Assembly: GCA_032718475.1 (NCBI GenBank)
Contig: JAUCBJ010002497.1
Span: 62,001-126,000 of the forward strand
Length of the DNA: 64,000 bases
Origin: Nemertoderma westbladi
Taxonomy: Eukaryota > Animalia > Xenacoelomorpha
Reading direction: 5' to 3'
Part shown: positions 19,867 through 63,399 of the stretch, piece by piece
How positions within the stretch are numbered: the stretch's first letter is position 1
Layout: every line of letters starts with the position of its first letter
Notes under the pieces: model-generated
What the model saw: the letters and a program-made list of their open reading frames with translations, nothing else
Database searches by the model: none
Told to the model about the DNA's origin: nothing
Program-made: the position numbers and the translations under genes

Positions 19867-20993
19867 TGTTCGCGCTTTCAGACCTTTAGCAGTTTAACCT
19901 GCCAAATTTAGATGTCTTCTAGGTTATAAATCGACTTTAGCCTATGACGAGTATTTGATACACTACATTAGCCGAAGCCAGCCTATGCGCGACCATTCAC
20001 CCGCTGGATATACCCGGGAGACTGGATTCGGAAGCTCTGACCTTATTGCGATGTAGGCCTACTGTATTATTCGATTGATCGTTAATATATAATCTCTGAC
20101 CAATATTATTCACTTTCGGGAAATATTAACAGTTCCTTTAGGACGTGGCGCTCTAAGTATGTAAACAGAGTTATGACTTACACTAAACACAACGGGATGG
20201 CTAATGATTCACGTATAAAGCGCATTCCATAGGAGATGCTTTGTTATCTGTCACAGTCATGCACACTACCGCACAATGCTGCACACCGATCTGCCGACCT
20301 TCACTAATTTTAGTCACATATAAAGAGAACAGCAACTGACACATGTAGTGCCTATGAAATAGCATTAGATTCACTCCAAAACCAATATAATGTAAGTCGC
20401 AATTGCTATATGTAACCGGTCTCTTACCTTCAGTATATCAAGAAGATTGGGGTTTTATGATTATTTATCGATATTATCCAAATATAACAATATTCCATCA
20501 ACTGATATAATTAATAACCGACAGTAAATAGCAGTAAAATAATGCGTTGTTTGTATGAGATATGACCATATGACAAGTGTGATTCGTTTGATAACAGTTA
20601 TACGTTTCTATGATCAAAGCCGGTCTAATGTTTGGCTAAAGTCTGAAACACAGAATAATTCCACAGCCGGTGTTCTAGGCTTAGGAAAAATACACACTGA
20701 CTGAATTGCGTGAGTTTCTGTATACAATGTCCAACACAGAGTGAAAACCGCTCTGATTGGTCGACCGAACAAAGAACAAAGAAAAAGTTACACGTGGACA
20801 CAGCTGATAGATGTCGTCATCTGAGTTCCGATGTTTAGAGTATTTGAGCTTATTGCGGAGAAAAATGGCTTTTTATGTCCGCTAAAGCACACATGCAGAC
20901 ATAGCGGGCAAAATCGCTTGTTATGTCCGCTAAAATACCTACTCGGTATATTGCGGAGAAAAATAGCTTGTTACATCCGCAAAAGCTTTTACA
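19867..20993 (-). repeat. E1 3' LTR (1127 bp)
   Basis: Near-identical to 62262-63399. Confidence 0.95.
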
Positions 20994-21199
20994 CCTCTCC
21001 CAGAAAATGGGATTTGAGTCTATAAAATATACAAAATCACAGTTTCTAAAATATAAAAATACTCTAAACAGTTAGTCTTTCTTGTGCGGACGGCGTTTAC
21101 GCAGTTTTTTTCTCTTTGGGGTGAGCCACTTTACTAGGAGGGCTATAACTCCTGGGTAAAGGGTGCAATACAATTGCATCGGAAGGTTTAGGGTTATGG

Positions 21200-22408
21200 T
21201 CGATGTCTCGTCCATTTCGATATGCTTCTCCTCGAGCTGATTTTCCTCCGCTTATCGTTGGATGCATTCGTCCAAAAACTCTTGCAGAGAATAGGGTCTT
21301 CCAAGTTCGATATCTTCTTAGAGATTCTGGATTTCCTGATCGAACTGAGATAAAGCTAATTCGTTTACCGCTTTGACTTGCTGCTGCAATTTACGTTTCT
21401 CTAAACAATTATAGGTTCCTTTTCCGATCTTTTGACGAATAGTGTCCAACACGTTTCGTACAACTCTCTCCTCCGCCTTGGTGACAGGTTGTATCGGGTT
21501 AAACCGGGACGATGATACGGTTGAATGACGATATTAGATGTCCGCGTCCCAATCCGGCTAGGTAAGATGGGCGAATATTTAGGGAGCCCACAACCGGAGT
21601 GCCACCGACTAACTGTTCGGGTAACACTAGATCTTTGAATAGTGAGTACAGTTCGGGAGGATCCGTGATACTATTAGGATCAAGAGTCTGAAGTCTAACT
21701 AGGGAATGAGGAGGTCTGACCGAGTATTCCGGAACTCTGATCATAGGTTTATTTAAGGATCGTTTGAATCGAATGAGCGTAGGTGATACATCGAACAAGT
21801 TTCGCTCGAAACTCCCATAAATATAGCGAGTAAAACCGTGTTTAAAGCAACGTCTCTACGGATGTTTATGTTTTTCCATTTGTTGGTTGGGTCTTGGGCA
21901 TTCATCGCAATAATACCAAAGACGCACGTCTTGTAGGGGAAACGCGGGTGATATTTATTCGGTTTTACAATGTTTCTCTCAAGAATTCCAAATATACGTT
22001 GGAGTTACCGCGTTTATCCGGTTCTTTAACGTCTTCTCTTTCGATTCAATTTCGAATAGAATTTTCGCATTCGATTTTCAGTTTATCGTTCCAACTCCGT
22101 TGGGTAGGATATTTAAATAGTACCATTTCCCTTTCGGTGTCGACATCGTCCGTATCGTGTAAATCGATATGACCAGTATTTAAGAAGTCCATATGCGTAC
22201 CATTACGATGCGTATAGCGAGCAGTGAATTTTCGATAGTCTAATTCACGCGTAAGTTGCTCCTGGGACATCGGCGGTTCGATATAACGACCATCGTCCTC
22301 CGTAGTAGTTGGACTAGCGTCGCTGCGTATCAAGCTATCAACAAACGCTTGCAACGGTAGAGTATATTTCTCCCATATACCAAGATCATCTTCTATCAAC
22401 TCAGTCAT
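21200..22408 (-). pseudogene. Degraded accessory ORF remnant of E1 (env position)
   Basis: Broken ORFs 22046-22408 and 21499-21798, homologous to E3 49694-50900. LWYYCDEC...RRCFKHGFTRY resembles LYYQCGAC...VRCSNHQQLRY of E2 ORF2. Confidence 0.55.
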
Positions 22409-24047
22409 AGCTGCTATATGAGTTTATCAATATTATAATTAGTTATAATTACGCTAGCGGGCGTCGCTGCCTACCCCTCTCGGCCCGCGGACAGCGCAAG
22501 ATCCTCAGTGCTGGTGTACTTTCGCCGTTGTGCCTATCGCCAACGTAGTAGCTGCACAACGACCACAACAACCAGCGCGAGTCACTCCACCGTCCGTCCC
22601 AAAGGCTTAGATTTACTTAAGGTTCTTACTGGAGAGTTAGGGCTACTTTCACAATTGCGACTCGCTACTGTAAACACACTTTAGTAGTAACATTCACCTA
22701 TAAACACACAAATTCCACACAACTGTCACAAACCGCACACATTCGGGCCATTTGTCCGTTAGTCAAGTGCCTTCCAGAATGCCACGTTATTATTGGGTAT
22801 CCTGGGATACTAGCAGTATGCTATTTATTCCTTATGCTATTCAATGGGGCAAGCCTTTATTGTTCTTTTAACTCACTTCTAATTCTAGCATGGTTGTTGC
22901 CATGGTGACATTATGGAAAGCTAGCAGTAGAATTAGGGTAACTCTCATGCATACAGATCTGGGATGCTATTTAATAGTAATTCTTTAATTGTCAATATTC
23001 CTCTTTATACATGATTTTATGAATTTTATCGGCTATTGACTATATATTGGAGATTCTCGCACACTAATATACTTAATAGGGTGAATCTCCGCTCCCATGA
23101 TCTATTAATTTATGGAATTTTGGGAATGTTATAAATTGTATAAAAATGACAATTTATCAAATTCATTAAAAGATGAATTTAAATTTATTCCCATAAATTT
23201 TATTATTTAATATTAAATAGACACAATTTTATTCCAGAACATGTCTGGGGACTGGGATCCCTGATTCTAGGAAATTGGTCTTTTTAAGAATATCGGTAAG
23301 TGCTACGATATCTTAATCGACTAGAATTTTAAATGATCTGAAATTTGACAGATTTTATAAATATTAATAGTTAATATTTAGGATGGGCACCAGTTTATTC
23401 CAGAACTTGTCTGGGGACGTTAACCACTGATTCTAGAATTTTGTCTTTCAAGTATATCGGTGGGTGCCGCGATATCTTAATCGACTAGAATTACAGATGG
23501 TCAAAAGGTTTAACAGATTTATTTTGCGTTTTACGCTACTGTTAAAGGGACATCACGCTACTATATGTATTATTTAATATACGGTATGAGAGCAATATCG
23601 CAAGAAGCAATGTCAGTGAGAAGAGGCAAGTCGTTTCCAAGGTCTACCCAGAGCTTGGTTTAGCCGAGACACGAGGATCTGAATTTTGCATTCCTAATAC
23701 TCTACTTACCAATAAAACTTGAATATAGTAGGAGCTTTATTGTACTTTAATAAGTACGGATATTTCATCTTACTGTAGTCACGTATTTATAATGTAATAC
23801 GAACAGTAAGGAAAGAGAAAAAGAATTATTTCTCGCCGTCGCACTAAATATATAATATATAAGTAATTAAGTAATAAACGCGAATATATATATGGCACTA
23901 ATCTACTAAATAATCGCTAAAATAACATTCTACTAAATAAAATTAAAGAAAACGATTATAATAAAATTACATAATAATACATACATAAATATAAAATAAT
24001 AAAAACAAATATAAAATAATATAGTCACACACCCACTCCAGACGCTG

Positions 24048-25123
24048 TTACGTTGGGGAGTCCCTAGATGTTTTTTGGATTAGGGAGGTGGTCGTGGGAA
24101 GAGTATCTTGCCTTCCATAGTTTCCAGACAGTTCTCGGTCTCTTTCCAGTAAACATAAACGACCAACTGGGCGATTGAGCTGCTGTGTCTCGAAGACAAT
24201 TCCAGGTTTCCTCTTCGTCCTGGAATAGTGACGATAGAAACATCGCTTCAAATACACGATGGCCTTACAAAGCCGATTCCAGGATCTATAGTGGTCCATC
24301 GCTCCCGGCAGGAGAGGTGAGAGATCTTTCAGTGTCTTTCCCGCTGTCTTCCTCTTGAGAAGCCTGGCTTTCGCCGTCGTCTGTATAACACACTGGTATT
24401 ACCTTTCTCGTAGAAACGGGTTTCTCACTTACCTTATTTTCCGGTGTCTTCTCTCTGGACTGTTTTAGGAGCTGTAATTTTACCTCTCCATCTAAGAATG
24501 ACATGAGATCAGCCATGGTAGGGTCTCTTCGTTATGGTTCCATCATATATAACACTTTCTTGTCCCAGCGTGTACCTACTCCACCTTTGGGCAAAGTAGA
24601 TGCTAAGGCTCCTACAACCATAGAATTCTGGTATCTTACCTAACCAATCTAGTTGTCTACAGATCTCCTGAATCTCGTCGGAAAACTCTATAATCCCGCT
24701 GCTAAGAAACTTTCGGGGCGCCATTAATTTCGCATATAAATACCTAGCTATGTTAGTCCTATTACCATACCTGATGTTTAGTGTATCCCAAACTTGTCTT
24801 AATCCATCTGGATGTCCAATAAACTTTAACGCCATTAACTTGGGAGATCCTTCCAAGCACTCGATGAGGAATCTCAGTTTCTCTCCGTTAGATAGCACAG
24901 AGTTCTGTATGTTATTTTTGTAATATTCATTAAAAGGTAACCATTTCATCTCATCTCCATTGAACTTGACGATCTCTCCCACCTTTACCGCTTGACGGGC
25001 TTCGGTTCTAGCCATTTGACGCGTAAAACTTTCTTGGGCCAACGTGTTATTTAATATCGAGTTATCGGTATATAAATTTCTCGGATTATTATCAAGTCTA
25101 TATGGAATATCATTGTCAACAGG
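24048..25123 (-). pseudogene. E1 gag 3' part, fused by deletion to post-RNase H sequence
   Basis: IVKFNGDEMKWLPF...EKLRFLIECLEG...VWDTLNIRYG (Pao gag core). Highly similar to E3 42880-43690, then jumps to sequence equivalent to E3 47760-48035. Confidence 0.85.
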
Positions 25124-25258
25124 TTTATTATAGAATTATATTCTCTAAATGCCGTGGATTTTCAAAATTTTATTTTATTCGAATTTACTTTGTTATAAAG
25201 ATTACATTAAGTCCTCATTTGTATTTACTATATCTATTTATACGATGATTATTCAAGT

Positions 25259-25343
25259 GGTTCAGTAGCTCAGTCGGTAAAGCGTTGGAAATTATATGTA
25301 GTAGGTATTGAGTTCGAATCCTTGTAGGTGTGAATTATTTTTT
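25259..25343 (+). promoter_or_regulatory. tRNA-like Pol III internal promoter (A box, B box, T6) in the E2 LTR; second copy at 56291-56375
   Basis: A box tagctcagtcgg, B box gagttcgaatcc at tRNA-like spacing, T6 run at 25338-25343. No pairing acceptor stem. Confidence 0.65.
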
Positions 25344-25409
25344 GTGCAGAATTTCAACTCATTTAAATTGACCGCTACAAATTAAATTGCATTTGCCTGT
25401 ACCTAGATT

Positions 25410-25612
25410 AACCAATGGGACTGTAGTTATTAGATAGTAACCAATGTCGTGCAAGTTGTATATTCGCTGGACCAATAGTTATCTTTAAAAACCTATTAGA
25501 ACTCATAGAACAATCGAGAATTTTCTCGATTGATTGCAGCACAAATTTGCTATATAAGGTGCGATTTCGTTCATTAGTTATTCTAATTAGTTTATAATCT
25601 TTTGTAATAAAA
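25410..25612 (+). promoter_or_regulatory. Candidate Pol II promoter and polyA signal of the E2 LTR
   Basis: Three CCAAT motifs (~25412, 25441, 25472), TATATAA at 25551 and AATAAA at ~25606. Confidence 0.5.
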
Positions 25613-26965
25613 GTTAGAAATACTTGTTACATCTGCCCTTTTCTATCCTGTTTTACTACGGTGAACTTAACTGAGGGACAAGATGGCAGGCTAAACATCG
25701 GGCCACAGCAGTGAACGGGAACATCTGAGGAATGTAGAAAGGAGACAACCCGCAATATCATTCTTGAGTTATTCGCCCATCGCCTGAAAGGTTAGACAGC
25801 GTTCAATGCCTTGCTACCTAAGTATAAGACCAAAGATCGAATGTAGAGGTAGTAACACGCTGTGCGCTAAAAATTACATCTAGGGACCGTACTGTCTTAA
25901 TTCAGAGAAAACCCGCAGTAGACCTTCATATTCCTACGGGGGAGAGGAGAGCAGGCAGAGATACTAGTACACAGATAGGACGTAGGCACACCGGTACAAG
26001 GCATACACATTGGTAGGGTGCAGCAAACTGTACGCCTAACTCTTGCCAAGTACAGGTGCGCCTGTGACTATTTGTAGTACAACGGTGTCCATTGCATTAG
26101 AACTTGTAGGCCAGAAGGGTTACTGTGTTTTACCTGAATTAGGATTGTACCGTTCAGGCGGTAGGGCAGTTTACAACTAGGCGCAAAATAAATTGAGGCT
26201 ATTTAGGGATACTAACATCTACCGTGTCCCCGCCAACATTCTGTTAGGAAGTTGCTGTACCCATCTAGGCAACCAAAATTCTAGATAGGAACACCAGGCT
26301 AGCTATTAGTAACTGTACGCCTACTGTAGTAAACTAACACATTTCATCTTAGTATTAGGGACCTGGTAAATTAAATTGCCGAATTCTGGGCGTAGTATTA
26401 ACCTTATGCCTGAATTTGAGTCCTGGAAATACAAAAAAGGGAAGGAGCCTTATCATTCGTGAGTATTGGACCTACAAGTTACAAAATTAGAATATTCGTA
26501 AAATGTACACCGGACCCAGTAATTATATATATGAAGGAGCAAAACTGACTTTGACTGTTTAGAATTAACACGCGCGCGTTAGAAATTATTTACACCTCAA
26601 AATACATAAAATTAACTTTTGTCCGTACTGCGCTTTGCCCGCTAGTTAGACATCTCTAGATCTCTGCACCTAGCTAGCGTCTTTTTCGCCCAACCATATA
26701 AATCACACCGCGGCAAAGTATATGAGCGCCCTTAGTCCGTCAGTGAGTCAGCCTGATTTTAGGATTCGCTGCGCGGGATTTTGTTTTATCGAAGTTTGTC
26801 CGTTCGTAGACTGTTTTCTGCCTCACCGGTTATAAGAGACCGATACTGCAATATATATTCGCTTACTTGGAGTTTACTGTTTTGGTGAGAAGGTCGGATT
26901 ATGATTTGATTCACAAACTTTACAGTAGGATATTGCAGGGTATTTTGTTACTGTCTCTTCGCATA

Positions 26966-26976
26966 GTAGGAATATG
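26966..26976 (+). promoter_or_regulatory. E2 primer-binding-site position, complementary to its own LTR rather than tRNA-like
   Basis: gtaggaatatg is the reverse complement of catattcctac at 25927-25937 and 56959-56969. Confidence 0.75.
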
Positions 26977-29567
26977 TTTTACTGAACTACGGTTCGGTAG
27001 GACTAAAGTTATTTGAAAATTCTGTATTTTGAGGTAAAAGTTTATATTTGATTAGCTAAGTGCTAATTTTTTGAAATAAAATTTTGATTTGAACCGCGTG
27101 TAAAATATTTTGGAATTGAATACCGGTGTTTAAAAAGGGTTTAAATACCATATTGTACCGGTACAAAATTTTCGTAAAAGTAAAACTTAACTCTTTTGTT
27201 TTTCAGGATTCAGAGCTCATTTCTAGACTGTAACGAGAGCAAGACCGTGTTTAGCAAGTTTCCGAGATAGATAACTCAACAACTTTGGTTGGGAAAATCG
27301 CACTTCGTCCGCAACGCTGGAAACGGAAAGGTTCACGTCCGGTTTGTATCTGGGAATCTGTTTTTCTGGAGAATCATTGGAGGGGGTGAGTTCGAAAAGT
27401 TGCATAAATAAGTTAGGCATTACCGTATTAGTTAAAATTATTGTGGGTTCCACTGTCTCAAGTATTTATGCATTCCGTACGATTTCTTTGTTTATTGCTG
27501 AATTAGTCCGTATTATTGTATTTAATTTACCTTTTGATAACGTATATCGTTTCTGATTTATTTGTTATAAAATTGGCCGGTAGGCTAATTTTATTATATA
27601 CTTATTCCGTGACATTTATTTGCTGTAAAATTGGCCGCTAGGCTAATTTTATCCATCTGCTATAAAATCGGCCGGTAGGCTAATTTTATATGACTGTAAT
27701 TAATACCGTTTTGATACAAATACGGTAAGTTTGATACTTTGACACTCACTTTACTTGACTTACAACTACCGAAATGAGTGACAAACAAGACTATACGAAG
27801 AATACACAAACCGACTATGACTCATGTAACGCGGATAAGTCAGAAGCGGAAGAACCACAGGGGAAGACTCGTGAGCCTACCGAACCTACACCGTGCGCGT
27901 CACCAGTACATCCAACGGGAGTACCGGATGCCGTAGTACGAGGCGACGGCAGGACCGAGGATTTTCTAACGGTCCCGCAACCTAGATATAGGGAAACGGA
28001 CATGGTAAGTTCAGTAGGAAGCCAGGAAAGCGTTGTTAGAAGCGTCGGAGGTTACATGGCGCATATTACTAGGAGTATTGGAGAAGGCCAACGCATATTA
28101 GACGAGTTGACCGCTCCGATGTCTCGATTCGAGTTCTACACTCTACAGGTGAGAGTACAAAGCAGAGTACATAAGTCCGTAGATAATCTAATTGGTCTAC
28201 AAGATCTAGCTAGACAGAGACAGGATATGGACACACAGTTTAGAATCCTCGAGAAATTAATGATCGCTAGAGAGAAACTGATTCAGTTTAAGACGACCGT
28301 TAGACAGATACAACAGGAACAAGCAGACCAGTTGCTAGGTGAGTCGGTTTCCGACGAGTTATTACAGCCCGAGGAAGAACAGGAACTGTACCGACTGGAT
28401 GGACAATTGAAACATCTGACGGATCACTTACGTATGTGCGGCGAAGACGTCGGCGATTTGGAAACCGTGCCGGAATATACGAGGGGAACTTCACCCGTAC
28501 AAATCGAATCGGCACCGGAAATACTGGACCAATCGTTAGTGAGTATTCGCAGCGAAATTGGCGAGGTAAGTATAGTGACGTCAGAAATTTCTAGACAGCA
28601 ACAACAGTACCACAGACAACAACGAGAAATGGAAGAACAAACTCAATTGTTAACTGTACAAGCAGCTGTAGAGGAAGAGAAGCTACGCGTTGCAAATGTT
28701 GCGAGAATTTCTCATCTGCAAGAACAAGCCGAGTTGGAAGCGGCTGAGATGGAAAGGTTGGAGCTAGAAATAGCACAAAGAACAGCAGCAGCGGAGTTAG
28801 CGCAACGAGCGGCAGCAGCCGAGTTGGAACGACAAGCGGCAGCGGCTGAGTTGGAACGACAAGTGGCAGCAGCGGAGTTAGACAAACAAAGGCGAGTTTC
28901 GGAAGCCCGAGCCGAGTTGAAAAAACGACAAATAAAGGCTCAATCAGCTATACGACAAGCGGAGTTCGAGGCGCAACAACAACAGACGGAACAACGTGAG
29001 AAGGAAGTTAAACTTCATTTCGAACTCGAAAGGAAGGCGAGAGAACTAGCCGAAGCCAAGGAAAATCTGGATCTTCTAGCCCGCGATCGATCGATGAGAT
29101 CTCGTGACGGACATGATTTGGACCAGATAGAGGTAAGGCACCGTCAAATTCAGGAACGAATGAAGGAAGGAAGTGTAGGGGCACCTGGGCGAGAAAGACA
29201 ATTAGTTAAAGACTTATGTCAAAGATTCCCTCAAGTAACTCCTATGTTTGCACCAGTTACGACTAAGGAACCTGTTTCGATTGCGGGTAGTAGTAATATT
29301 TCTCCTATCCATTGTGCGACGGAACACAGGTTTGTTATTCCGGACAAGTTCATACCGCCAAGAGCAACACCGTCGCCTATTCTGAAAGTCAAGGTAAGTA
29401 ACCCACCGATTACCGATCGTAGTAGTTTATTGCCCGGACCTGCACTACTAACGACAAAACAGGTGAGTCCACCTTCGACACCAAAACCCGTTACGCACTA
29501 CACATACCCAATGACGTTTAGGCCTACAAGGCCTTTAGATTCAAACGCTGTCACTCGACCACCGGTT

Positions 29568-30057
29568 CAGTTTACATCGCAATCTACGACTTCGAGGAAG
29601 ACCTGCGAGCCTACCGAACAATGGAGACCAGTGGATACGCGACCGTTTAATCAGTTTACATCGCAATCTACGACTTCGAGGAAGACCTGCGAGCCTACCG
29701 AACAACGGAGACCAGTGGATACGCGACCGTTTAATCAGTTTACATCGCAATCTACGACTTCGTGGAAGACCTGAGAGCCTACCGAACAATGGAGACCAGT
29801 GGATACGCGACCGTTTAATCAGTTTACATCGCAATCTACGACTTTGAGGAAGACCTGCGAGCCTACCGAACAACGGAGACCAGTGGATACGCGACCGTTT
29901 AATCAGTTTACATCGCAATCTACGACTTCGAGGAAGACCTGCGAGCCTACCGAACAACGGAGACCAGTGGATACGCGACCGTTTAATCAGTTTACATCGC
30001 AATCTACGACTTCGAGGAAGACCTGCGAGCCTACCGAACAACGGAGACCAGTGGATG
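29568..30057 (+). repeat. 84-bp coding tandem repeat (~6 copies) in E2 gag
   Basis: Encodes QFTSQSTTSRKTCEPTEQRRPVDTRPFN; the third copy has TGC>TGA. Confidence 0.95.
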
Positions 30058-34544: not shown

Positions 34545-34750
34545 ACCAGACGTATCGCCAGACGGTCAACCAGACATGTTACCAGACGGTCAACCAGACG
34601 TATCGCCAGACGGTCAACCAGACACGTTACCAGACGGTCAACCAGATGTATCGCCAGACGGTCAACCAGACACGTTATTAGACGATCAACCAGACATTTT
34701 GCCAGACGTGTCACTAGACGTTTTGCCGGATGTTCCGCGAAACATTTTAC
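34545..34750 (+). repeat. 24-bp coding tandem repeat (PDGQPDVS/TL) in the E2 RNase H-integrase linker
   Basis: ccagacggtcaaccagac(g/a)... units. Confidence 0.9.
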
Positions 34751-37384: not shown

Positions 37385-38156
37385 ATGGCGAAGGGGATAC
37401 AAGGAGAGCCGAGATGGGGATATGATATCCAAGAGGAAGCAGCAGCGCCATTCGAACGATTTGGAACTAAGGATTACACTATATTTGGAATAAAGGATTT
37501 ATCAGAAAGTATAGCGAAACTCGCAAAGACCAAATATGACTCAAATGTATTAAAGAGAAGGCAAAATGCGTTAAATGAAAAAATCGAAAGTTTACGTAAA
37601 ACCTTCAATGAACTTTACCCGTACGACGCTTTATGTGATACGGGAGATATTAGCAAAGATCCCGATACCGAAATTAGTCGTTTGTATCATACTATGCAAT
37701 ACCTAAAGGCACATGAACCTATGCCCGCGGTACGCGATGAATTCGATGGAATGCATCTTTACAGACGAACTCGAGGGGACGATAGAGAAACAAAGGAAGC
37801 ATTTTCAGTTTATAAACTTTATTATCAATGCGGTGCTTGTATGCGCGAACAACGAAATGCGATTTCGATGCGTTTAAATAAGGAAAATCCCGAACCGATA
37901 TTGGTGAGGTGTTCGAACCATCAACAACTACGCTACCAGGAAGGAGGGTATCCTTTATCGAATCCATATCATTCATTCGCTATGACTGGACCAAAGGCGG
38001 GAGAAATTGTCGTTTACCCACCTAAGGTTGTTGAACCCGATGTATTCGAACTTACGCTGGACGAGGCGACTCAGTCAACCCGCGAAAAGAAAGAAGCTCT
38101 TAGCCTATACAGAGCCTACAAGGCTTTCGAGAAAGGCGAGATGGAAGAATGGGGCG
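37385..38156 (+). CDS. E2 accessory ORF2, N-terminal part (interrupted by E3)
   Basis: 257 open codons up to the GGGCG TSD; continues in frame at 52280. Contains CGAC...CSNH, a putative Zn site. Confidence 0.85.
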
Positions 38157-50900: not shown

Positions 50901-51057
50901 AGTGGCTCCCCCCAAAGAGAAAAGGACTCTTGCTAGCCTCAAAAAACTGCGTAAACGCCGTCTGCGTAAGAAAGACTAACTGTTTAGAGTATCTTTATGT
51001 TTTAGAAACTGTGATTTTTATATTTTATAGACTGAAAATCCCATTTTCTGGGAGCGG

Positions 51058-52274
51058 TGTAAAAGCCTTTGCTGAATTGCCCCGTTTTTTATATTATCTT
51101 TTACATTAAAATACTCTGTAGTTGATTTAATAAGTGTAAGAGACCGTATTATTGCTGTATCGGTGTTTTTAGAGGATCTAAGACCTATTTCCTCCGTATG
51201 TGTACTGTGAAAGGCATATTTTATGATTCTATGGCAATTCGTGACGCAAAGGGGTGATAGCTACTCTTGAACAGTAGTTACTATGACTACGGTTAACAGC
51301 TGACATTCATACGTGTTGATTTCCTTTGTTCTACGGCGTCTCTCAGTTCAGTCAGCCAATGAGAGCGTTTTTGTGGCTCCTTGTACAGAAAATTTCCGAG
51401 AAATGACGCAATGCCTATGTGCAGTGTTTACATTCAGTCTTGAGCCAAAGAAAGAACGGCTTGGAAGTATTTTGTGCTGTACTGCTTTTTAGTCGTACAC
51501 TAGTAGGTTTAATTATAAAGGGCATATATCCTTTAACAAACTGACTACTTGAATATCTCATGCCTATATCTCATTGCTGACATACCGGTACTGACTTGTT
51601 GTTTTATACTGCTATTTGCTGTCAGTTCTTCATAATATGGTTGATGAATAATTATATTTGGAATAACGATAAATAACCCCGCAACCCAATATTCTTGATA
51701 TACCTAAGGTAAGAGAGAAAGAAAGGTTACCAATAACGATTGTGACTTATGTTAAAGTGGTTTGAAGTGAATCTAATGTTATTTGATAGACCCTACATGA
51801 GTCAGCCTGTGTTCCTTTTATATGTGACTAAAATCATTGAAGATTGGCAGATTAGTGTGCAGTATTGTGCAGCATAGTGTATGCGTGAGTCTGTTAAAGA
51901 AGCAATTCCTAAAGAATGCGCCATATATGTGAATTAATTAAGCCATATCGTTGTGAGTAGTTTAAGTCATAACTCTGTTTATGTAGATAAAGCGCCACGT
52001 CCTAAAGGAACTGTTAATATTACCGAAGGTGAATAATATTGTCAGAGATTATATAGTACTGTCAGTCGAATAATACATTAGGCTTACATAGCAATAAAAA
52101 TTAAACCGTCGAACCCAATCTCCCGGGAATATCCAGCGGGTGAATGGTCGCGCACGGATTGGTTTCGACTAGTGTAGTGAATCAAATACTTGTCATAGAC
52201 TAAAAAGCGATTTATTATCTAGAAGACATTCTAATTTGGCGGGTTAAACTGCCAAAGGTCTGAAAGCGCGAACA
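51058..52274 (+). repeat. E3 3' LTR (1217 bp)
   Basis: Direct repeat of 38157-39369, followed by TSD GGGCG. Confidence 0.96.
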
Positions 52275-52279
52275 GGGCG

Positions 52280-55230
52280 GAAGACTCGCGAGCCTACCTT
52301 ACCATTGGACGTCACACGATCAAACTTCAGCTAAGGAGATGACACCGGAAGTTTTCGAGAGTATAAACTTTGCTCAAAACGTTATTCAGAGACTACAGAT
52401 TGCATCCCTGGAAAGGACAAGAGAAATGCAACCGTATAGTACTTCAACTACGAAACCATTGAGTACGACACTCAATTTCCCTATTAGTATACCAGTTCGA
52501 CAAGATACAACGTATGAAATACCTATTGTGGATCATCCGGAAATCATTTCGAACTTAGAGTTTCTTCCTGCAGTTGTTCTAAGCGATATGGTTAAGATAT
52601 ATGATTTACGTAGACATATTACGCAAAAGGTCGTGCATAATGTTCCGCCTCATATTCAAGACTTTAGGGAACTGGATAGAGCTGGCGCTGATATAGCTCC
52701 GAGTAACCTGAAAGGATATTTAACCAAAACAATTCGCTTATGGATTGGAACAGGAACCTTTGAGTCGGATACAGATATCGCTGCGGACTGGCAAGGTAAA
52801 GTCATTCGTTTCGAGGACGAGAAAGACATAGAGAAGATTTGGCAACCTTCGGAAGAATTATTGGACGAATGGAATAGGACGTTTAGATCGTTTCAGGAAA
52901 ACGGTTACATGTTTTATGATAACGAGGGCGGCAGCCATCAGCAGAGTCTAACCTCCAAGACTATACAAATTAGAGCGGCAGACGGAGTTTTGCACATTTT
53001 CAGTAGACAAAGGAGCGACAAGCGAATGCCAATACCTCCAGGAACTACAAAGCGGCACCATTTCATCACAAATATAGTAAAGAAAATGGACCAGGCTTGC
53101 AATATCGATGCTAAAATGTTACCAAAGACGGTGAGAAATATGATTTTAGATAAAACTGTTGTAAAGATTGGATCAGGAGTAAGAGAGGACTTAATTAGCG
53201 ACTTCGCCGGCATTTCGGACAGTGACGACCGATTACCGACACCTTACGTCGACACTCGACCTCTTATACTGTGGTCTATAGAACAAGGATACTTTCGTGA
53301 GTATGATACTCAGAAAACCGGAACTGGATATATTTCCTACTTGATGTTTAATTGGGATTACAAGGAAAGTAAAAGAACAAAGTATATCGAAACGTATGGA
53401 GAAGGTGATACTCCAGATATAAATGAGTTTGAATCACAGCTCAAATGGAGAGGATGCGTATATTGGGCTATTACTTCACCTCCAAGAGCCATACTACAAT
53501 ATTATTTAGCGATAGAGTCATCAGTGAATGTTTGCTTAGTCGCCGACATTGTGTCTCGGACTCTTAAAAGACATCCACTTTGCCTCGGAGAAGATCATAC
53601 ATTCCACGCGGAAGGGAGAATTCATACCGATGTGTTTAGATGGTTTCTCGAACCCTTCTACAATTCCGACGCTCAGTGTAATGCCTTCACTCGAGCAGGA
53701 TTCAGTATATTTCGAGACGTGTATCTTCGCTGTGCGGGATCTCTTATCGAAAGACCATCTATGTTTACATTGTTACCCTATGAAGGAGAACGTATCATGG
53801 AGCTTACTGACGAATCACGGCAGACGCGTGCGCCTATCGGTCACTTAGGTGATGATTTCGAAGTAACGACGGCCATCGATGATCCTTTAGAGGAACTTCT
53901 TGAGATTGAAAGGAACCTCCCGAAGAAATCTCAGGCGGAGATTCGACAACTAGAAGCAACAGATGCTGTAGTTTGCATACAACCTTCTGAAACATACCAA
54001 CCTATCGACCCAGACGATTATGACTATAGTGTGGGAGGAAGCGCTCGACCCATTGGCGATCTTATATATGAGCGAGTGTGGTACCCTGCTAATACGATGT
54101 GTGGTAAATGTGGCGTCGCTGGACATCATTCAACAAAGTGCAGTGGAAAGCACATTACTACGACTCAACTGATTTGTGGGTGGTGTGGAGATCAAGGGTC
54201 CCATACATTTTATACTTGCTGGAGATTTATGGCTCAATGCACATATTGCAATATAAAGGGACATCGAGCATCTGAATGCCAACTGAGAGACATACCTTAC
54301 GAACACGAATCTGTAAAACTCGTGCGAAAACTATTTGATGAGTGGGAAGATTTGGCTGACGAACATGTAGCAGCGCAAAGAAGACGGTTCCCGATGAGAG
54401 CGCATCTTGGATTTTGGGTGGTAAATCCTCAAACTATGATGTCGGAAGGATATATCTCCGCTATGCCGCAATATGACGAACTCATCGAGGTAGTTGATAT
54501 TTTGCCTCACGATAGTGGATTCCGAGTTGTGCGCGAATATTTGTTACAGATACACCCTGACAATAAGAATACATGGAATTTCCAGAAAGTCGTTAATCGT
54601 ATCACCTATGGTGAATTTGATCGGTTCCGAACGGAAAAGCGGAACAAGGGAGCTTGGTTAACCGTTGCATGGGCGTACCGAGCCGCGTTCTACCATAAAC
54701 GTATACGAGCGAGCGTATTCGAGGAAGAGGAGGTCCTAGAGGCGAACAACATACCAGCTACTCCGGTCGCGCCATCTGCACGTCACCCTCGGGAGGACGG
54801 ACAGCACAAGATCATACGGGTCCAGAAAGTGGGCCAACAGTTAAAGAAAACTATCAACGTTGAAGAACGAAGGGGATACGAACCGACTATTCGAATTACT
54901 CGGGATACGGTTTCGCTTCCCAGAGAACCGCAAGGAGGATCGGGACATATACCAGCTGATCAAAAGGGGGCGCAAGCTTCTCTTGGGTCTGCGTCGTCCG
55001 CTTCTCGCGCGTTCCCAGACGTTTTACCAGCGGTAGATACAACAGATCGGTCACGAGGGATTGGACGAGGATTTGGGATAACTAAGAGACGAATATGTGA
55101 GGAAATGGTCGTACCATCTCCCAACGTCCAAAGTAATCCAGTGGCTCGCCCCACAAGTCCCATATCACGAGCTAAATCGCCGATACGCAGTTTTCGAGGA
55201 CGCGGCAGGGCTCGATCCGCTAAGCGTTAA
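52280..55230 (+). CDS. E2 accessory ORF2, C-terminal part: DEDDy (WRN/Mut-7/EXD-like) 3'-5' exonuclease domain, three CCHC knuckles and an Arg/Gly-rich tail
   Basis: ExoI MFYDNE, then TIQIRAADGVLHIF. ExoII LPKTVRNMILDKTVVKIGSGVRED, then YVDT. ExoIII-like W....PPRAILQYYLAIES. Knuckles CGKCGVAGHHSTKC, CGWCGDQGSHTFYTC and CTYCNIKGHRASEC. Ends FRGRGRARSAKR. Confidence 0.72.
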
Positions 55231-55369
55231 AGCGGGAAGGAAGGAGTGGACGGAAGACTCGTGAGCCTTTCTTATGAATTGTTTGTTTTATGTATTGTTT
55301 TATGCATTGTTTAGGTAAATCAAATTGTTTATGTAAATTGAATTATTTATGTAATTTGTATTGTTTAAA

Positions 55370-55675
55370 ATTTATATTGCTCTAAATTTATACAATTTAT
55401 ATTGTTCTAAATTTATGCAATTTATATTATTCTAAATTTATGCAATTTACATTGTTCTAAATTTATGTATTTGTATTGTTCCGAACTTATGAAACTTAGA
55501 AAGTTTATATTTAGAAGGAACTTATATTTGAAAGATTTATATTTCATATTTGAGATGCAAAGAGTTTATATTATTCTAAGCTTATGCAGTATTATTCTAA
55601 GCTTATGCAGTATTATTCTAAGCTTATGCAGTATTATTCTAAGCTTATGCAGTATTATTCTAAACTTATGCAATT
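55370..55675. repeat. Short 21-bp tandem repeats in the E2 3' UTR
   Basis: attgttctaaatttatgcaattt and ttattctaagcttatgcagta units. Confidence 0.85.
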
Positions 55676-56160
55676 TAGTAAAGATTTATATTTAGAAAGT
55701 GCTATATTTGTAGTCATTCCAAACTTACGCAATTTATTGTTTCGAATATTATGCAATTTATATTTTGTAAAGAAGCAGTATTTGTATTTACAGTAAATAG
55801 AAGGCAAGAGCAGACGGAAGACTTGTGAGCCTTTCTTGTGATTTATTTTGAACTTATGCAATTTGTTTTATATTTAAGTAGTATTAGTATTTGTGATTGT
55901 TTGAATTCATGCAATATTTGAGATGCAATAGATTTATTTTAGTGAATTTAATTTAGATTTATATTGTGCTTACTTAATAAAGCCTTAAATACGTAAAGTT
56001 TGAATTTGTAATTATTTGTATCGAATTATTATGTAAAGGTATTATTGTTGAGATCTAATTTGTAAATATGTAAGTACGTCCCAAGTATTCTATAGTTTGC
56101 TTTAGTATTGGTGAAAACCGTATATTTTATGCACAATAATATCCTGTTTTCATGGAGCGG

Positions 56161-57997
56161 TATAGAATTATATTCTCTAAATGGCGTGGATTTTCAAAAT
56201 TTTATTTTATTCGAATTAACTTTGTTATAAAGATTACATTAAGTCCTCATTTGTATTTACTATATCTATTTGTACGATGATTATTCAAGTGGTTCAGTAG
56301 CTCAGTCGGTAAAGCGTTGGAAATTATATGTAGTAGGTATTGAGTTCGAATCCTTGTAGGTGCGAATTATTTTTTGTGCAGAATTTCAACTCATTTAAAT
56401 TGACCACTACAAATTAAATTGCATTTGCCTGTACCTAGATTAACCAATGGGACTGTAGTTATTAGATAGTAACCAATGTCGTGCAAGTTGTATATTCGCT
56501 GGACCAATAGTTATCTTTAAAAACCTATTAGAACTCATAGAACAATCGAGAATTTTCTCGATTGATTGCAGCACAAATTTGCTATATAAGGTGCGATTTC
56601 GTTCATTAGTTATTCTAATTAGTTTATAATCTTTTGTAATAAAAGTTAGAAATACTTGTTACATCTGCCCTTTTCTATCATGTTTTACTACGGTGAACTT
56701 AACTGAGGGACAAGATGGCAGGCTAAACATCGGGCCACAGCAGTGAACGGGAACATCTGAGGAATGTAGACAGGAGACAACCCGCAATATCATTCTTGAG
56801 TTATTCGCCCATCGCCTGAAAGGTTAGACAGCGTTCAATGCCTTGCTACCTAAGTATAAGACCAAAGATCGAAGGTAGAGGTAGTGACACGCTGTGCGCT
56901 AAAAATTACATCTAGGGACCGTACTGTCTTAATTCAGAGAAAACCCGCGGTAGACCTTCATATTCCTACGGGGGAGAGGAGAGCAGGCAGAGATACTAGT
57001 ACACAGATAGGACGTAGGCACACCGGTACAAGGCATACACATTGGTAGGGTGCAGCAAACTGTACGCCTAACTCTTGCCAAGTACAGGTGCATCTGTGAC
57101 TATTTGTAGTACAACGGTGTCCATTGCATTAGAACTTGTAGGCCAGAAGGGTTACTGTGTTTTACATGAATTAGGATTGTACCGTTCAGGCGGTAGGGCA
57201 GTTTACAACTAGGCGCAAAATAAATTGAGGCTATTTAGGGATACTAACATCTACCGTGTCCCCGCCAACATTCTGTTAGGAAGTTGCCGTACCCATCTAG
57301 GCAACCAAAATTCTAGATAGGAACACCAGGCTAGCTATTAGTAACTGTACGTCTACTGTAGTAAACTAACACATTTCTTCTTAGTATTAGGGACCTGGTA
57401 AATTAAATTGCCGAATTCTGGGCGTAGTATTAACCTTATGCCTGAATTTGAGTCCTGGAAATACAAAAAAGGGAAGGAGCCTTATCATTCGTGAGTATTG
57501 GACCTACAAGTTACAAAATTAGAATATTCGTAAAATGTACACCGGACCCAGTAATTATATATATGAAGGAGCAAAACTGACTTTGACTGTTTAGAATTAA
57601 CACGCGCGTGTTAGAAATTATTTACACCTCAAAATACATAAAATTAACTTTTGTCCGTACTGCGCTTTGCCCGCTAGTTAGACATCTCTAGATCTCTGCA
57701 CCTAGCTAGCGTCTTTTTCGCCCAACCATATAAATCACACAGCGGCAAAGTATACGAGCGCCGTTAGTCCGTCAGTGAGTCAGCCTGATTTTAGGATTCG
57801 CTGCGCGGGATTTTGTTTTATCGAAGTTTGTCCGTTCGTAGACTGTTTTCTGCCTCACCGGTTATAAGAGACCGATACTGCAATATATATTCGCTTACTT
57901 GGAGTTTACTGTTTTGGTGAGAAGGTCGGATTATGATTTGATTCACAAACTTTACAGTAGGATATTGCAGGGTATTTTGTTACTGTCTCTTCGCATA
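56161..57997 (+). repeat. E2 3' LTR (1837 bp)
   Basis: Direct repeat of 25129-26965, followed by TSD TTTAT. Confidence 0.95.
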
Positions 57998-58002
57998 TTT
58001 AT

Positions 58003-60140
58003 AATTACCCTTAATAGGGTTTACTATAGGAGTTTCCACTTCACTAGCAGTATAGATGCGTGTAGGCTCCACACCTTGCGCATGAAATACTTCAGACCTA
58101 ACAGGTTGACACATTGTTATAGGGGTTGGTGGTATACCCCTTTGGGTATTTACTAATTTGTCGCGTTCCAACGCGATACTCTGCTGCACCTCTTGCAACT
58201 CTAACCTACTTTCCCTTACTGTGCCCTTGAACTGCTGAACAGTTCCTTCCATCTCCCGGACCTGCTGAGAGGAGCACTTACGGTGTTCCCTCAGCTGCTC
58301 GAGCAAGAGACCCATCTCCCGTTGTCCCTCAGCTACCCACTCGACCGCCGAAGCGGGAGTCGCCAACGTAGTAGCGGGCGAGCGAGAGACGAAGGGCGAT
58401 AAATTCTTGATATCTTGCTCGCCGTCCAGGATGGGTTCGGACTCGGGAACAGTCCTACTGGGCACAGGTAGTTTCGTGCTGTGCAAAGGGAATTTAGAGG
58501 TAGGTTCTGGGAGTACAGGTGTCTCTATCACCGAAGGGGTGGCTTCGAGAACAGGCCCAATTATTTCAGGTTCATCTACTATAGTAGGGAGTCTTTCTAC
58601 TTTAATAATTTAATTACTCTGTCTTTTGGGAGTAGATCGACACATCATCTGCATTTGACTAGCTGTTAACTGTTTATTTATGCAGTCTTGATTCTCTTGA
58701 ATATTTTCCAACTCTAGTTGGGTGGTTTCTTCAGACGCTCTCCGTTCTGCTTCTGCCACTGCCTCTGCCGCTGCCACTGCCGCTTTTCTTTCCGCTTCGG
58801 ATGCTGCCACTGCTGCCTTTCTTTCCGCTTCTGCCGCTGCCACTGCCGCTTTTCTTTCCGCTTCTGCCGCTGCCACTGCCGCTGCTGCTTTTCTTTCCGC
58901 TTCGGCCGCTGCCACTGCCGCTTTTCTTTCCGCTTCTGCCGCTGCCACTGCCGCTGCTGCTGCTGCTGTCTTTCTGTCTTCTATACGTTTTTTCTTTACC
59001 TGTTCTTCTTGGACCCTAGTGATGCGGAGTCTTTCATCAAATTTAGCTTGGTTCGCAGCTAACATTTCCACATCTATTGCGTCCAACACAAGATTGGCTC
59101 CTTCACTATTAGGGCGAAGTCCAGACAGCCGTCTCCTCAACTCTTCGTCACCTAGAAATCGTTGATAGTCTGACAGATAGATGTCAATAGCATCCCTCTT
59201 ATGCGGTTTCTCAGCTGTCGCTTCACTTTCCACTTGGGAAAAGGTAGCGTCTGTTGATTCTCCATGGGTTGAGCGCTCAGCCAGCTGAGATTTCCACTGG
59301 GCCGTTCCTTGAACCTTGTGACTCACCCGCTGGAACCAAGTCTTTACAGCAACTTGCAACGACGTGTCTTGTCTTCTTTTCGAAGCTTCCTCAAAGGCCG
59401 ATAGGATTAGTCTGATACTTAGAATTCTTTCTCTAACTTGATAAAGCAGCTCTCCCTGCTCTTGAGGTCCTTGGGGTTGTCGAAACAGTTGTTCCTCTAA
59501 TCGCTCCAAAGAGCTGAAGAATCCCTGTACGTATCCTGCTGCCGACCTCTTCCATACAGCTGGATCACTGGTGTCTTTTGTCACTCCCATCCTGTGTATG
59601 TCTTCCCAGGCAGCTTCTGATAAGTCAAACGGGAGTCCGGGTCCGGGGAAGTTCCATTGCGACTCGACAATAGACTTCAGTTCTTCCCTTGTGTATCCCG
59701 CATAACTATCCTTGGTCGATCGCTTACTTCTCAATCTGGTGTTCCTCCACCGCAATCAATACCCTAGTGAGTACGGCTGCAGGAAGGATGAGAAGGGGAT
59801 CCGAATAAACCACATCTGCCATCTTTGCTCCACGCTCGGGTGTCAGCTCTACAGTATCCGCACTACTGGAACTGTCGGGCTGCTGAGAAATAAGTTCTCG
59901 GCTCGAGTGTTGCTGCTGTTCAACAGCTGCTTCTTGGTCCTGCTTGACCTGAGCTCAAGTGCCTATGATAGACCTACGGTGTTGGACTAGCCTAGGGTCT
60001 GATACTACTACTGGAGGGATGATCTTTCTTACAGTAGGAGGTGAGTTGAACTTCGGTCTCACACGTTCCACACTCCTGTCTGGGTCACAGATGGTTGTAT
60101 CTAGGAGACTGTCTGACAGGTTTTGCTTTGTGTCAGACAT
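58003..60140 (-). pseudogene. E1 gag 5' part (frameshifted)
   Basis: Starts MSDTKQNLSDSLLDTT like E3 gag; ESEATAEKPHKRDAIDIYL and AAAEAERKA repeats; continues at 25123 once E2 is removed. Confidence 0.88.
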
Positions 60141-60274
60141 GTTTGTTTGTACAGTTGAATGCCTACTGCTATATTACAGTTAAAGCAAGTCTAGTAATTC
60201 AGTATCACTGTTAGCCTAGTAATTAATTACCGATATCGTTACTCTATGTAATGTGATATATATACAATATATTA

Positions 60275-60725
60275 GAGTACCGGTATATACTTATAGTATA
60301 TATAAGTATTATTACAGACTAGGTTTGTCACAGAATACCGGTATATAATTTCAGCGCAAATATATAAATATATAATAAGCCTATCGTGAATACCGGTATA
60401 CAGCTTACACTTATAGTATATATAAGTATAATTACAGACTATAATTAATTACAGAATACCGGTATATAATTTCAGCGCAAATATATAAATATATAATAAG
60501 CCTATCGTGAATACCGGTATACAGCTTACACTTATAGTATATATAAGTATAATTACAGACTAGAATTAATTACAGAATACCGGTATATAATTTCAGCGCA
60601 AATATATAAATATATAATAAGCCTATCGTGAATACCGGTATACAGCTTACACTTATAGTATATATAAGTATAATTACAGACTAGAATTAATTACAGAATA
60701 CCGGTATATAATTTCAGCTCAAATT
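60275..60725. repeat. 120-bp tandem repeat (~3.7 copies) in the E1 5' leader
   Basis: cagaataccggtatataatttcagcgcaaatatataaatatataataagcctatcgtgaataccggtatacagcttacac recurs with period ~120. Confidence 0.9.
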
Positions 60726-62249
60726 TATAGAAATAAATATAATAAGCCTATTGTAAATACCGGTATGTCAATTATTTTAGAATAATTGAATTTCTGAATT
60801 TTAGGGGTTACTTGGTTACTTTACTTTACCTTATTACCGTTATTTAAGCAGTAGTCCAACTGATATTAAGACCTAATTGTTGTATGACAGGCCTACTATT
60901 TTATAAATCGGTTTTTAAATGGGTTTTTGTCAATATTTGAAATAAATGTTATTATTTCTGGGAAGGAGTCACTGCACAGAAGCTGTACGCTCTCAGTGAA
61001 GTGCTACTTGTTGGACACTAAAACAAATAATTATAATTTGCCTAAATTACTTAATACTACAAATTACGTACAATTCGGGGTGAGATTACAATCTCTAAAT
61101 AAACACAAAAATTACACATACGAATTTTTAGGGTAATTTTACAAAAAGTCTACAAACCAGCCTAACAAAGGGTTAGAATATCTGGTTATTACAAACAGAC
61201 AGGATACTACGGTATTTGAAAATAACAAAGCAGTAATAAATATACTGCGTTGTCCAGATAGGAAAAATACCACCGTCTGACGACTTATAGCCGTATCGCT
61301 ATAAGTACTACGTTATGTATCACGGAGTGTTCCTACCTAGAACTTAATTACCGCGGCCTACCAGAGCCAACGTGCCTATTAACCACTTTACAACACAAAT
61401 ATACTGCCTACACACTAATTACCTTCGGAAAGTACTGTACACTAAACCCTAAATTAGGTACAAGTACTTATACAACAAATAATCAGCAGTTAAAAATACT
61501 TGTACAGCTAAAAGAACCACGGTATCTGCTGGAGTGACCAAAGCATAAAATCTCCAGTCTTTACCTACGCCGAACAGCCCTGATGTAGTACCGGGGTTAA
61601 TTTAACTATAACGGTATGTATAACAAGCACAATTACTGTAGGAATAAACTTGGGGTTTGTGAATGTTGCGAATAATCGCATAAACTCTGAATAATAAATA
61701 TTACGCTACCCGTACAGACTACACAAACAAAATACAAACCAAATGCTGGCAGACTACTATCAAGCCTAAATAAACTACAGTATATGCAGACTCCGAAATG
61801 GTTAGTTAGTATGCGTTCTAACCGAGTAGTACGACTTATTCTTTCAGGGGGATTTACCTTACAGCACTGGATGCCACCCACTTTCCTAACTAGTACTTTA
61901 TCGGACATACACTCTACACACACTGCAATCTCTTCAGACTTAACAACAGTCAGACAACAGTCTAGCCTACAAATTATCTGTACAATCTGAGCAGGCTTAC
62001 ACGCCTTCTGCTCAATATCAACTTACAAATAAATAAAACTGACAGAAATAAGTAAAATCCCAATAAAAACCAGGGCTGCAGTCCCTGATTAAATATCAAG
62101 ACCTACCGGTATACAATTATCAAAAATCGAATAATACTGCTGTACCTGTACTGCTGTAAGTACCGGTCCGAGTGGTTAGGTAGTCAGGCCTACTGGTTAC
62201 CGGTCGACCGGTACTTTTGCCCTTTATTGCCTACGTGCAATAAAGAAGC

Positions 62250-62261
62250 TATAACTGTTAT
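62250..62261 (-). promoter_or_regulatory. E1 primer-binding-site position, complementary to its own LTR
   Basis: Element strand ataacagttata; its complement lies at 62986-62997 and 20591-20602. Confidence 0.8.
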
Positions 62262-63399
62262 TGTTCGCGCTTTCAGACCTTTAGCAGTTTAACCTGCCAA
62301 ATTTAGGTGTCTTCTAGGTTATAAATCGACTTTAGCCTATGACGAGTATTTGATACTCTACATTAGCCGAAGCCAGCCTATGCGCGACCATTCACCCGCT
62401 GGATATACCCGGGAGACTGGATTCGGAAGCTCTGACCTTATTGCGATGTAGGCCTACTGTATTATTCGATTGATCGTTAATATATAATCTCTGACCAATA
62501 TTATTCACTTTCGGGAAATATTAACAGTTCCTTTAGGACGTGGCGCTCTAAGTATGTAAACAGAGTTATGACTTACACTAAACACAACGGGATGGCTAAT
62601 GATTCACGTATAAAGCGCATTCTTTAGGAGATGCTTTGTTAACTGTCACAGTCATGCACACTACCGCACAATGCTGCACACCGATCTGCCGACCTTCACT
62701 AATTTTAGTCACATATAAAGAAAACAGCAACTGACACATGTAGTGCCTATGAAATAGCATTAGATTCACTCCAAAACCAATATAATGTAAGTCGCAATTG
62801 CTATATGTAACCGGTCTCTTACCTTCAGTATATCAAGAAGATTGGGGTTTTATGATTATTTATCGATATTATCCAAATATAACAATATTCCATCAACTGA
62901 TATAATTAATAACCGACAGTAAATAGCAGTAAAATAATGCGGTGTTTGTAAGAGATATGACCATATGACAAGTGTGATTCGTTTGATAACAGTTATACGT
63001 TTCTATGATCAAAGCCGGTCTAATGTTTGGCTAAAGTCTGAAACACAGAATAATTCCACAGCCGGTGTTCTAGGCTTAGGAAAAATACACACTGACTGAA
63101 TTGCGTGAGTTTCTGGATACAATGTCCAACACAGAGTGAAAACCGCTCTGATTGGTCGACCGAACAAAGAACGAACAAAGAACAAAGAAAAAGTTACACG
63201 TGGACACAGCTGATAGATGTCGTCATCTGAGTTCCGATGTTTAGAGTATTTGAGCTTATTGCGGAGAAAAATGGCTTTTTATGTCCGCTAAAGCACACAT
63301 GCAGACATAGCGGGCAAAATCGCTTGTTATGTCCGCTAAAATACCTACTCGGTATATTGCGGAGAAAAATAGCTTGTTACATCCGCAAAAGCTTTTACA
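62262..63399 (-). repeat. E1 5' LTR (1138 bp)
   Basis: Repeat of 19867-20993 with an 11-bp duplication and about ten substitutions by eye; followed by TSD AAAAG. Confidence 0.95.

Follow-up and report, generated by a model that had tools for sequence, protein, structure and literature searches.

Self-priming of reverse transcription by the long terminal repeat (LTR) retrotransposon Tf1 has been proven experimentally, and its self-primer, about 11 nt long, remains attached to the DNA. A self-encoded tRNA primer has been attributed to Cer7 of C. elegans. In the parts of the Tf1/Tf2 literature covered here, the 5' end of the element RNA serves as the primer, held in a structure of three duplexes and cut by the reverse transcriptase (RT) (bioRxiv 10.1101/2022.12.06.519325; PMC5341516; PMC4600332). 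Self-priming has been described for Tf1/sushi, Tcn1 and TAR elements, and for the Tcn1 clade and the TAR lineage of Ty1/copia (Houba, Osr-1) it was predicted from at least 10 complementary nt located 0 to 5 nt past the LTR (PMC6317226, in the part covered). [quoted passage not shown] Here, we report three nested BEL/Pao elements, E1, E2 and E3, in which the bases directly after the 5' LTR pair exactly with a segment of the same LTR. They lie in a 64,000-nt stretch of Nemertoderma westbladi DNA (the window; contig JAUCBJ010002497.1, positions 62,001 to 126,000, forward strand). A preliminary description of the window had proposed self-priming for them, on the premise, in line with the ICTV profile, that BEL/Pao elements are generally described as tRNA-primed.

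According to the same partly covered sources, Tf1, Tf2, Tj1 and Tf1/sushi elements share with E1, E2 and E3 a short, LTR-complementary PBS at the LTR edge and the lack of a tRNA site, and a predicted duplex neighbouring the E2 PBS partly recalls the Tf1 pretzel. Unlike Tf1/sushi elements, which are Ty3/gypsy chromoviruses (Metaviridae), the three elements have BEL/Pao domains; Pfam gave no chromodomain match in them and their domains were BEL-specific, at variance with a Tf1/sushi polyprotein. The primer appears internal here and not at the RNA 5' end, a predicted intron interrupts it in 20 relatives, the full three-duplex structure was not found in E1 and E3, and what is proven by experiment for Tf1 is here predicted from sequence. 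As in Tcn1 and TAR, a trait that arose more than once is inferred from the ≥10-nt criterion, but those are plant and fungal gypsy and copia elements, with no junction-spanning primer in the part of the source covered. Fungal GalEa (a conserved hairpin site) and Dictyostelium Skipper (a polypyrimidine site) likewise have no tRNA PBS, yet the LTR segment complementary to the site that is present here is absent there, as far as the sources cover them (PMC5445492, PMC5006619). With Belpaoviridae (Semotivirus) the elements share a Gag with DUF1759, zinc knuckles, the order protease, RT, RNase H and integrase, Peptidase_A17, DUF5641, 5-bp target-site duplications (TSDs) and a polypurine tract (PPT); they differ from the ICTV description in lacking a tRNA site and in the 1.8-kb LTR of E2. 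A term search of the main text of a BEL/Pao survey (PMC3118150) and of the Sinbad paper (PMC554778) gave no occurrence of "PBS" or "tRNA". No BEL/Pao self-priming or junction-built primer was found in the literature searched, some of it covered in part (including PMC3601003 and PMC8220671), with most subscription journals, Repbase Reports and supplements outside coverage.

Complementarity of the primer-binding site and the LTR in E1, E2 and E3

The six segments of the three elements formed pairs of exact reverse complements (Table 1), as the preliminary description had stated. Each match began at the first base past the LTR (offset 0) and was longest there (E1, 12 nt; E2, 11 nt; E3, 12 nt), so that the 3' base of the putative primer stands opposite the first post-LTR base. 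The complementary segments start at LTR positions 403 (E1), 799 (E2) and 469 (E3), at distances of 724, 1028 and 734 nt from the LTR end, and each is intact in both LTRs of its element. No TGG occurred in the first 25 nt past any of the three 5' LTRs, and the 18-nt tRNA-Arg/Gly site of the ICTV description was not found in E1, E2 or E3. When the LTRs were shuffled with dinucleotides preserved, an exact complement at offset 0 arose in 1 (E1), 2 (E2) and 1 (E3) of 5000 shuffles, and at offsets 0 to 5 in 2, 21 and 2 of 5000, respectively. The E1 12-mer is partly self-palindromic, which somewhat reduces its information. The LTR ends were set independently of the primer match, by the 5-bp TSDs and the purine tracts; the TSD places the start of the E3 LTR at 38157. 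We conclude that the complementarity is real and far beyond chance.

E1 and E3, which are 84% identical in DNA, carry their 12-mers at equivalent positions, both directly followed by CAAAC. Their PBSs differ at 4 of 12 positions, flanked by 21 identical alignment columns before and 18 after; over the compared stretches, 6 of 48 positions differ upstream of the PBS and 0 of 14 downstream. All four PBS changes are mirrored in the LTR 12-mer, Watson-Crick pair to Watson-Crick pair. The alignment thus bore out the proposed kinship and covariation. Of the three cases originally put forward, all carry the signature, but they represent two lineages: E1 and E3, in which gag-protease and an RNase H scrap were found and RT and integrase were not, count as one non-autonomous lineage and E2 as the second. 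Directly after the E3 12-mer, at 38636-38680, copies vary more than anywhere else in the LTR, with a depth dip, indels and loose ends in three runs.

Table 1. Features of the three elements; coordinates are those of the window
Feature	Coordinates	Strand	Basis or remark
E1 putative self-primer 12-mer	62986..62997	-	LTR 403-414
E1 PBS	62250..62261	-	offset 0
E2 putative self-primer 11-mer	25927..25937	+	LTR 799-809
E2 PBS	26966..26976	+	offset 0, then predicted hairpin
E3 putative self-primer 12-mer	38624..38635	+	
E3 PBS	39370..39381	+	offset 0, then 9-bp hairpin conserved in E1
E2 predicted main promoter/poly(A) core: TATA box 25551, initiator-like site, AATAAA 25606, U-rich tract	25551..25630	+	sequence
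E2 GT..AG intron removing 11-mer and PBS	25791..27206	+	one X4 contig joint, 25788>27205; acceptor tract
E2 predicted short LTR intron, same donor, acceptor 25905 or 25918 (21 or 8 nt before 11-mer)	25791..25918	+	sequence and folding
E2 segment predicted to pair with U5 end beside PBS (second duplex, pretzel-like)	25943..25965	+	cofold
E3 GATAAA (candidate poly(A) signal) and AAG/GTAAG donor (cut at the slash)	38767..38812	+	sequence; both conserved in E1
E1 5' LTR, 1138 bp	62262..63399	-	98.2% to 3' LTR; TSD AAAAG
E1 interior	20994..62261 (57998-62261 and 20994-25128)	-	gag; no RT/integrase; split by E2 insertion
E1 3' LTR, intact 12-mer copy inside	19867..20993	-	LTR comparison; PPT 20994-21010
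E2 5' LTR, 1837 bp	25129..26965	+	98.9% to 3' LTR; TSD TTTAT; TA..TA ends
E2 gag-pol: DUF1759, zinc knuckles, protease, RT, Peptidase_A17/RNase H, integrase, DUF5641	27774..36725	+	
E2 extra 3' coding region	37358..55230 (37358-38156 and 52280-55230)	+	split by E3
E2 3' LTR, intact 11-mer copy	56161..57997	+	LTR comparison; PPT immediately upstream
E3 5' LTR	38157..39369	+	99.6% to 3' LTR; TSD GGGCG
E3 interior: gag-protease, RNase H scrap; no RT/integrase	39382..51057	+	tblastn
E3 3' LTR, intact 12-mer copy	51058..52274	+	

Self-comparison of the window resolved three nested LTR pairs, E3 within E2 within E1 (19867-63399), and this order agrees with the order of LTR-pair identity expected from age. 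In E2, DUF1759, Peptidase_A17 and DUF5641 passed the Pfam curated cut-offs, and RT and integrase were 34 to 43% identical to those of BEL/Pao relatives; a frame change near 33390 breaks the RT, and the catalytic motif was not found at this place. The E1 gag carries DUF1759 (Pfam), and the E3 gag-protease was recognised by tblastn. The bases that end the interior before the 3' LTR in E1 and E3 resemble those of E2, and a gag-protease tree joined E2 and E3 with a support of 96, flagged as two long branches. By proteins, LTRs, PPT and 5-bp TSDs, all three are BEL/Pao elements.

The extra 3' coding region of E2 has two CCHC knuckles and almost no relatives among 1.8 billion proteins. A language model gave, with a score of 0.91 and the family on 50% of members, a 3'-5' exonuclease-like lead, so part of this open reading frame (ORF) is possibly exonuclease-like; we dropped an assigned exonuclease role, as Pfam, PDB sequences and a representatives search (1 match) gave it no backing. 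The region recalls the DEDDy exonuclease ORF3 of bdelloid LTR elements (PMC5408684, in the part covered), but here the exonuclease is a language-model lead and the signature does not need one. Elsewhere in the window, about 2.4 kb at 44692-47132 with 800-bp inverted arms (88%) break the E3 protease region and have the look of a foldback element, and intron-less host ORFs lie at 5848-7548 (-) and 242-3604 (+), for a SPRY and RING protein (RSPRY1-like) and a PHD/Tudor-knot protein.

Primer-binding sites of BEL/Pao relatives

Relatives were fetched with an integrase alignment, which gave at least 79 metagenome loci (10 of 64 parts scanned) and one IMG/VR viral locus, the sole one obtained there, without a 5' LTR. 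Screening covered 54 of the 80 loci, each at least 3.9 kb long; 43 were examined closely and 32 were scorable, after exclusion of duplicates (L041, L047) and of loci whose contig lacked part of the LTR (L002, L008, L013, L019, L026, L040, L046, L056, L078). A TGG-type (TGGTCC-type) site was present in 8 of the 32, and in all eight the match to the own LTR was at most 7 nt. In the 24 relatives without such a site, the own-LTR match was 10 to 16 nt in every case and started 0 to 5 nt past the LTR. The comparison of related families for which the preliminary description had called thus gave an own match in 24/24 relatives without TGG versus 0/8 with it, and the signature is general in this part of the BEL/Pao family.

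Four of the 24 matches were contiguous; the other 20 appeared only after removal of a predicted GT..AG intron of 71 to 426 nt from the LTR. The junction search accepted any GTR donor, and the donor was GTAAGT in 11 of 19 junction matches. To allow for misplaced LTR ends, each nearby ACA or ATA was permitted as an end, within windows still centred on the hand-set ends; in this test, which covered 22 self-type relatives (L029 and L073 joined the set later), a match of at least 10 nt was found in 22/22 own pairings versus 17/462 foreign ones, several of the 17 being close kin. The PBS letters differed between families, with 27 different PBS sequences among the 24 relatives and E1, E2 and E3, each matching its own LTR. 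The matches were pure Watson-Crick, and the pair beyond the match edge was G-U in 3 of the 27. Primers of the relatives ended in AC in 20/24, were followed by C in 16/24 and were 11 nt long in 12/24. A poly(A) hexamer lay within -8 to +90 of the primer 3' end in 15/24 relatives versus 4.1 expected, and in these 15 the primer lies just upstream of the poly(A) signal, likely in the repeat (R) region. In L043, the 16-nt junction primer itself contains AATAAA. L031 has a contiguous primer (L031:122-132) whose motif is split by an intron in its closest relatives, L011 and L038, and L031 likely lost the LTR intron.

In an RT-RNase H-integrase tree of 30 rows (L065 was left out, its domain missing), 20 self-type rows formed one branch (support 100), and E2, on a long branch, was paired with its nearest relative L021 (90). 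Self-type L024 stood among 7 TGG rows (99). A constraint holding all self-type rows together was not rejected (approximately unbiased test, p-AU 0.105); one origin is possible. A junction-type element grouped with TGG-type elements in two trees (L024, L003, L005), and the priming mode may have switched more than once.

Transcript signals and predicted RNA structure

Runs X3, X4 and X5 consist of contigs, which cannot show RNA ends. X3 is DNA-like, and X4 is labelled 'DNA?', its RNA nature being a guess from one GT..AG joint and uneven depth. This joint links 25790 to 27207 in one contig, with 23 letters on the shorter side. It starts upstream of the E2 11-mer, so at least that RNA begins upstream of the mer, which for that RNA argues against a primer at the transcript 5' end. 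No joint for the predicted short LTR intron of E2 was present among the 15 listed of the 33 X4 joints. The predicted promoter and poly(A) core of the E2 LTR is textbook-like, with TATA at LTR position 423, AATAAA at 478 and then the U-rich tract. In E1 and E3, GATAAA and the splice donor lie 130 to 170 nt downstream of the mer. The X4/X3 depth ratio was 0.014 to 0.044 over 38572-38779, about 0.007 upstream and 0.001 to 0.003 downstream; the high-ratio stretch contains the E3 12-mer and ends near GATAAA, a weak hint, from contigs of a run not recorded as RNA, that the E3 mer lies in R. Acceptor-like pyrimidine-AG sites stand 33 to 41 nt before the E3 and E1 mers (38586-38591, +; 63038-63043, -), with no clear upstream donor; they are possible trans-splice acceptors, if the host trans-splices.

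In the unique 3' (U3) part of the E2 LTR, 25253-25335 (+) is tRNA-like: sequences resembling an A-box and a B-box precede a run of T, and an X5 contig begins at 25253; a tRNA-headed repeat may share this part. High X4 depth over this U3 was considered as a poly(A) drop and discarded, as the tRNA-like repeat may explain it. The stretch gave no ARAGORN or Rfam match and is not a primer candidate, and no tRNA genes were found in the 64-kb window.

RNA folding and cofolding predicted pairing of 0.8 to 1.0 at most primer-PBS pairs for RNA starting at the mer. In E2, where the value for such RNA was near 1, a Tf1-like second duplex, with the unique 5' (U5) end, was predicted beside the PBS. When the short intron was removed from E2 RNA starting at the TATA core (acceptor at LTR 777 or 790), predicted pairing was 0.88 to 0.91. 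Six other 115-nt deletions gave 0, whereas the non-intron block 684-798 gave 0.92, so the result says only that bases near LTR 765-790 compete with the pairing. This suggests that splicing could gate the E2 primer, folding over 1.3 kb being weak evidence. Hairpins flanking the PBS (39330-39352 and 39386-39410) are conserved between E1 and E3, the E2 hairpin downstream of the PBS (26979-26998) has a UACG loop, and LTR bases immediately preceding the mers are able to pair, too, with the 5' arm of the hairpin downstream of the PBS.

Candidate priming mechanisms and their implications

We regard self-priming in some form as highly probable and incline, by a modest degree, to an RNA self-primer released, in the manner of Tf1, from the 5' copy in the RNA of the element itself. 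The LTR segment would be transcribed within the 5' part of the element RNA, some way inside and not at the cap, and would fold onto the PBS. Cleavage at the 3' end of the segment would leave a primer that is extended into minus-strand DNA without a tRNA; the RNase H associated with RT is the probable enzyme, as in Tf1. Where the primer lies in R (most relatives, probably E1 and E3), the stretch from the cut to the poly(A) site would serve as homology for the first strand transfer; E2, whose best poly(A) signal precedes the 11-mer, would have to read through to the second signal (+249) or switch to the second packaged RNA. For RT and integrase, E1 and E3 would depend on a partner resembling E2, in keeping with the shared PPT context. 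During plus-strand synthesis the primer would be copied back into the PBS, and this would account for changes being mirrored immediately and without G-U pairs, and for the exon-exon junction read by the PBS of 20 relatives. A sharp Watson-Crick edge, fast mirrored change, family-specific letters, exclusion of the tRNA site and junction matching are all expected of a copied-back primer; a purely structural helix should admit wobble pairs, and conservation would be expected of a host RNA. The self-priming that had been proposed for a BEL/Pao lineage is supported by the contrast among the relatives and by their 20 junction-spanning matches, but it would not be confined to one small lineage. We hold only tentatively, at somewhat less than even chances, a wider reading whose parts stand together: a large Belpaoviridae branch would have dropped tRNA priming and the spliceosome would control the primer; most families would remove an LTR intron to assemble it, L031, E1 and E3 carrying it ready-made; and the E2 donor would choose between the long intron (mRNA, primer and PBS deleted) and the short intron (genome RNA, primer freed).

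Several observations weigh against a primer cut from the 5' copy. In E2, the 11-mer lies about 350 nt past the TATA/initiator core, inside the only intron seen, and the poly(A) hexamers at -332 and +249 of it do not fit a simple cis model; of the two primer sources named in the preliminary description, the RNA 5' end and the 3' LTR copy, neither is simple for this element. E1 is without a canonical poly(A) hexamer, the first one in E3 is at +552, and 9/24 relatives have no close one. Predicted pairing was 0 for unspliced E2 RNA from the TATA core and for E3 RNA beginning 60 nt upstream of the 12-mer, and in E1 and E3 the two further duplexes of the Tf1 pretzel were weak or absent. Among the relatives, the LTR ends were hand-set, partly with the match in view, and the exon junctions are predictions.

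The self-primer might instead come from elsewhere in the element RNA, either as a 3' LTR copy trimmed to the duplex or as a short, capped RNA from R, which solo or 3' LTRs could supply too, packaged in the way of a tRNA and acting in trans. Both LTRs carry an intact mer, and in relatives the acceptor lies 6 to 90 nt before the poly(A) signal, an arrangement that would let any LTR yield short spliced RNAs and would retain the intron in progeny LTRs; priming in trans or in a dimer would eliminate the strand-transfer problem of E2, and E2 has the extra ORF with the 3'-5' exonuclease lead. Most relatives, however, have no extra ORF, the lead lacks the backing noted above, a 3' copy always has sequence upstream of it and such sequence suppresses the predicted pairing in E2 and E3, and the literature covered, partly in excerpt, holds no precedent. 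We consider this source rather unlikely, at about half the weight given to the cut 5' copy. Less probable still is a structural role of the pairing, as a switch for dimerisation, packaging or translation control, with a host tRNA, tRNA fragment or other RNA priming at or near the site. The family is given as tRNA-Arg/Gly-primed by ICTV (PMC8742986), half-tRNA primers are known in copia lineages (PMC6317226, in the part covered), and the PBS has competing hairpins on both sides. Change at 4 of 12 positions between the sister families E1 and E3, amid conserved flanks, would not, however, be permitted by a conserved host RNA, and the 27 family-specific sites with their pure, sharply ended matches and the mutual exclusion of self-match and TGG site (24 vs 8) also speak against this reading. 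Chance, or a one-off functionless inverted duplication, is largely refuted and in our estimate very improbable: the words are short and AT-rich, the E1 mer is partly palindromic and spurious junction matches arise in long LTRs (at most 12 in foreign pairings on E2 and E3), but contiguous offset-0 matches were as rare in shuffles as given above, the changes are mirrored, and the signature recurs in 24 relatives across a deep tree.

The elements probably work like Tf1 but do not belong to the Tf1 group; for a family said to be tRNA-primed, this would be a variation on an established mechanism. The splice-built form of the primer would be new in kind if confirmed. Each step carries exact, single-base predictions that RNA-end sequencing can check. 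Annotation tools that demand a tRNA PBS would miss such elements, and self-primed elements would be expected to evade silencing by tRNA 3' fragments. Through a primer made at an exon junction, splicing and replication would be coupled in a way not found in the literature searched. If true, three quarters of the scorable relatives sampled begin reverse transcription on their own RNA, self-priming would be a solution reached repeatedly, with examples in each of the three superfamilies of LTR retrotransposons, and the finding would touch a question posed in the part covered of PMC3601003, namely whether priming by tRNA is an ancestral or a late trait.

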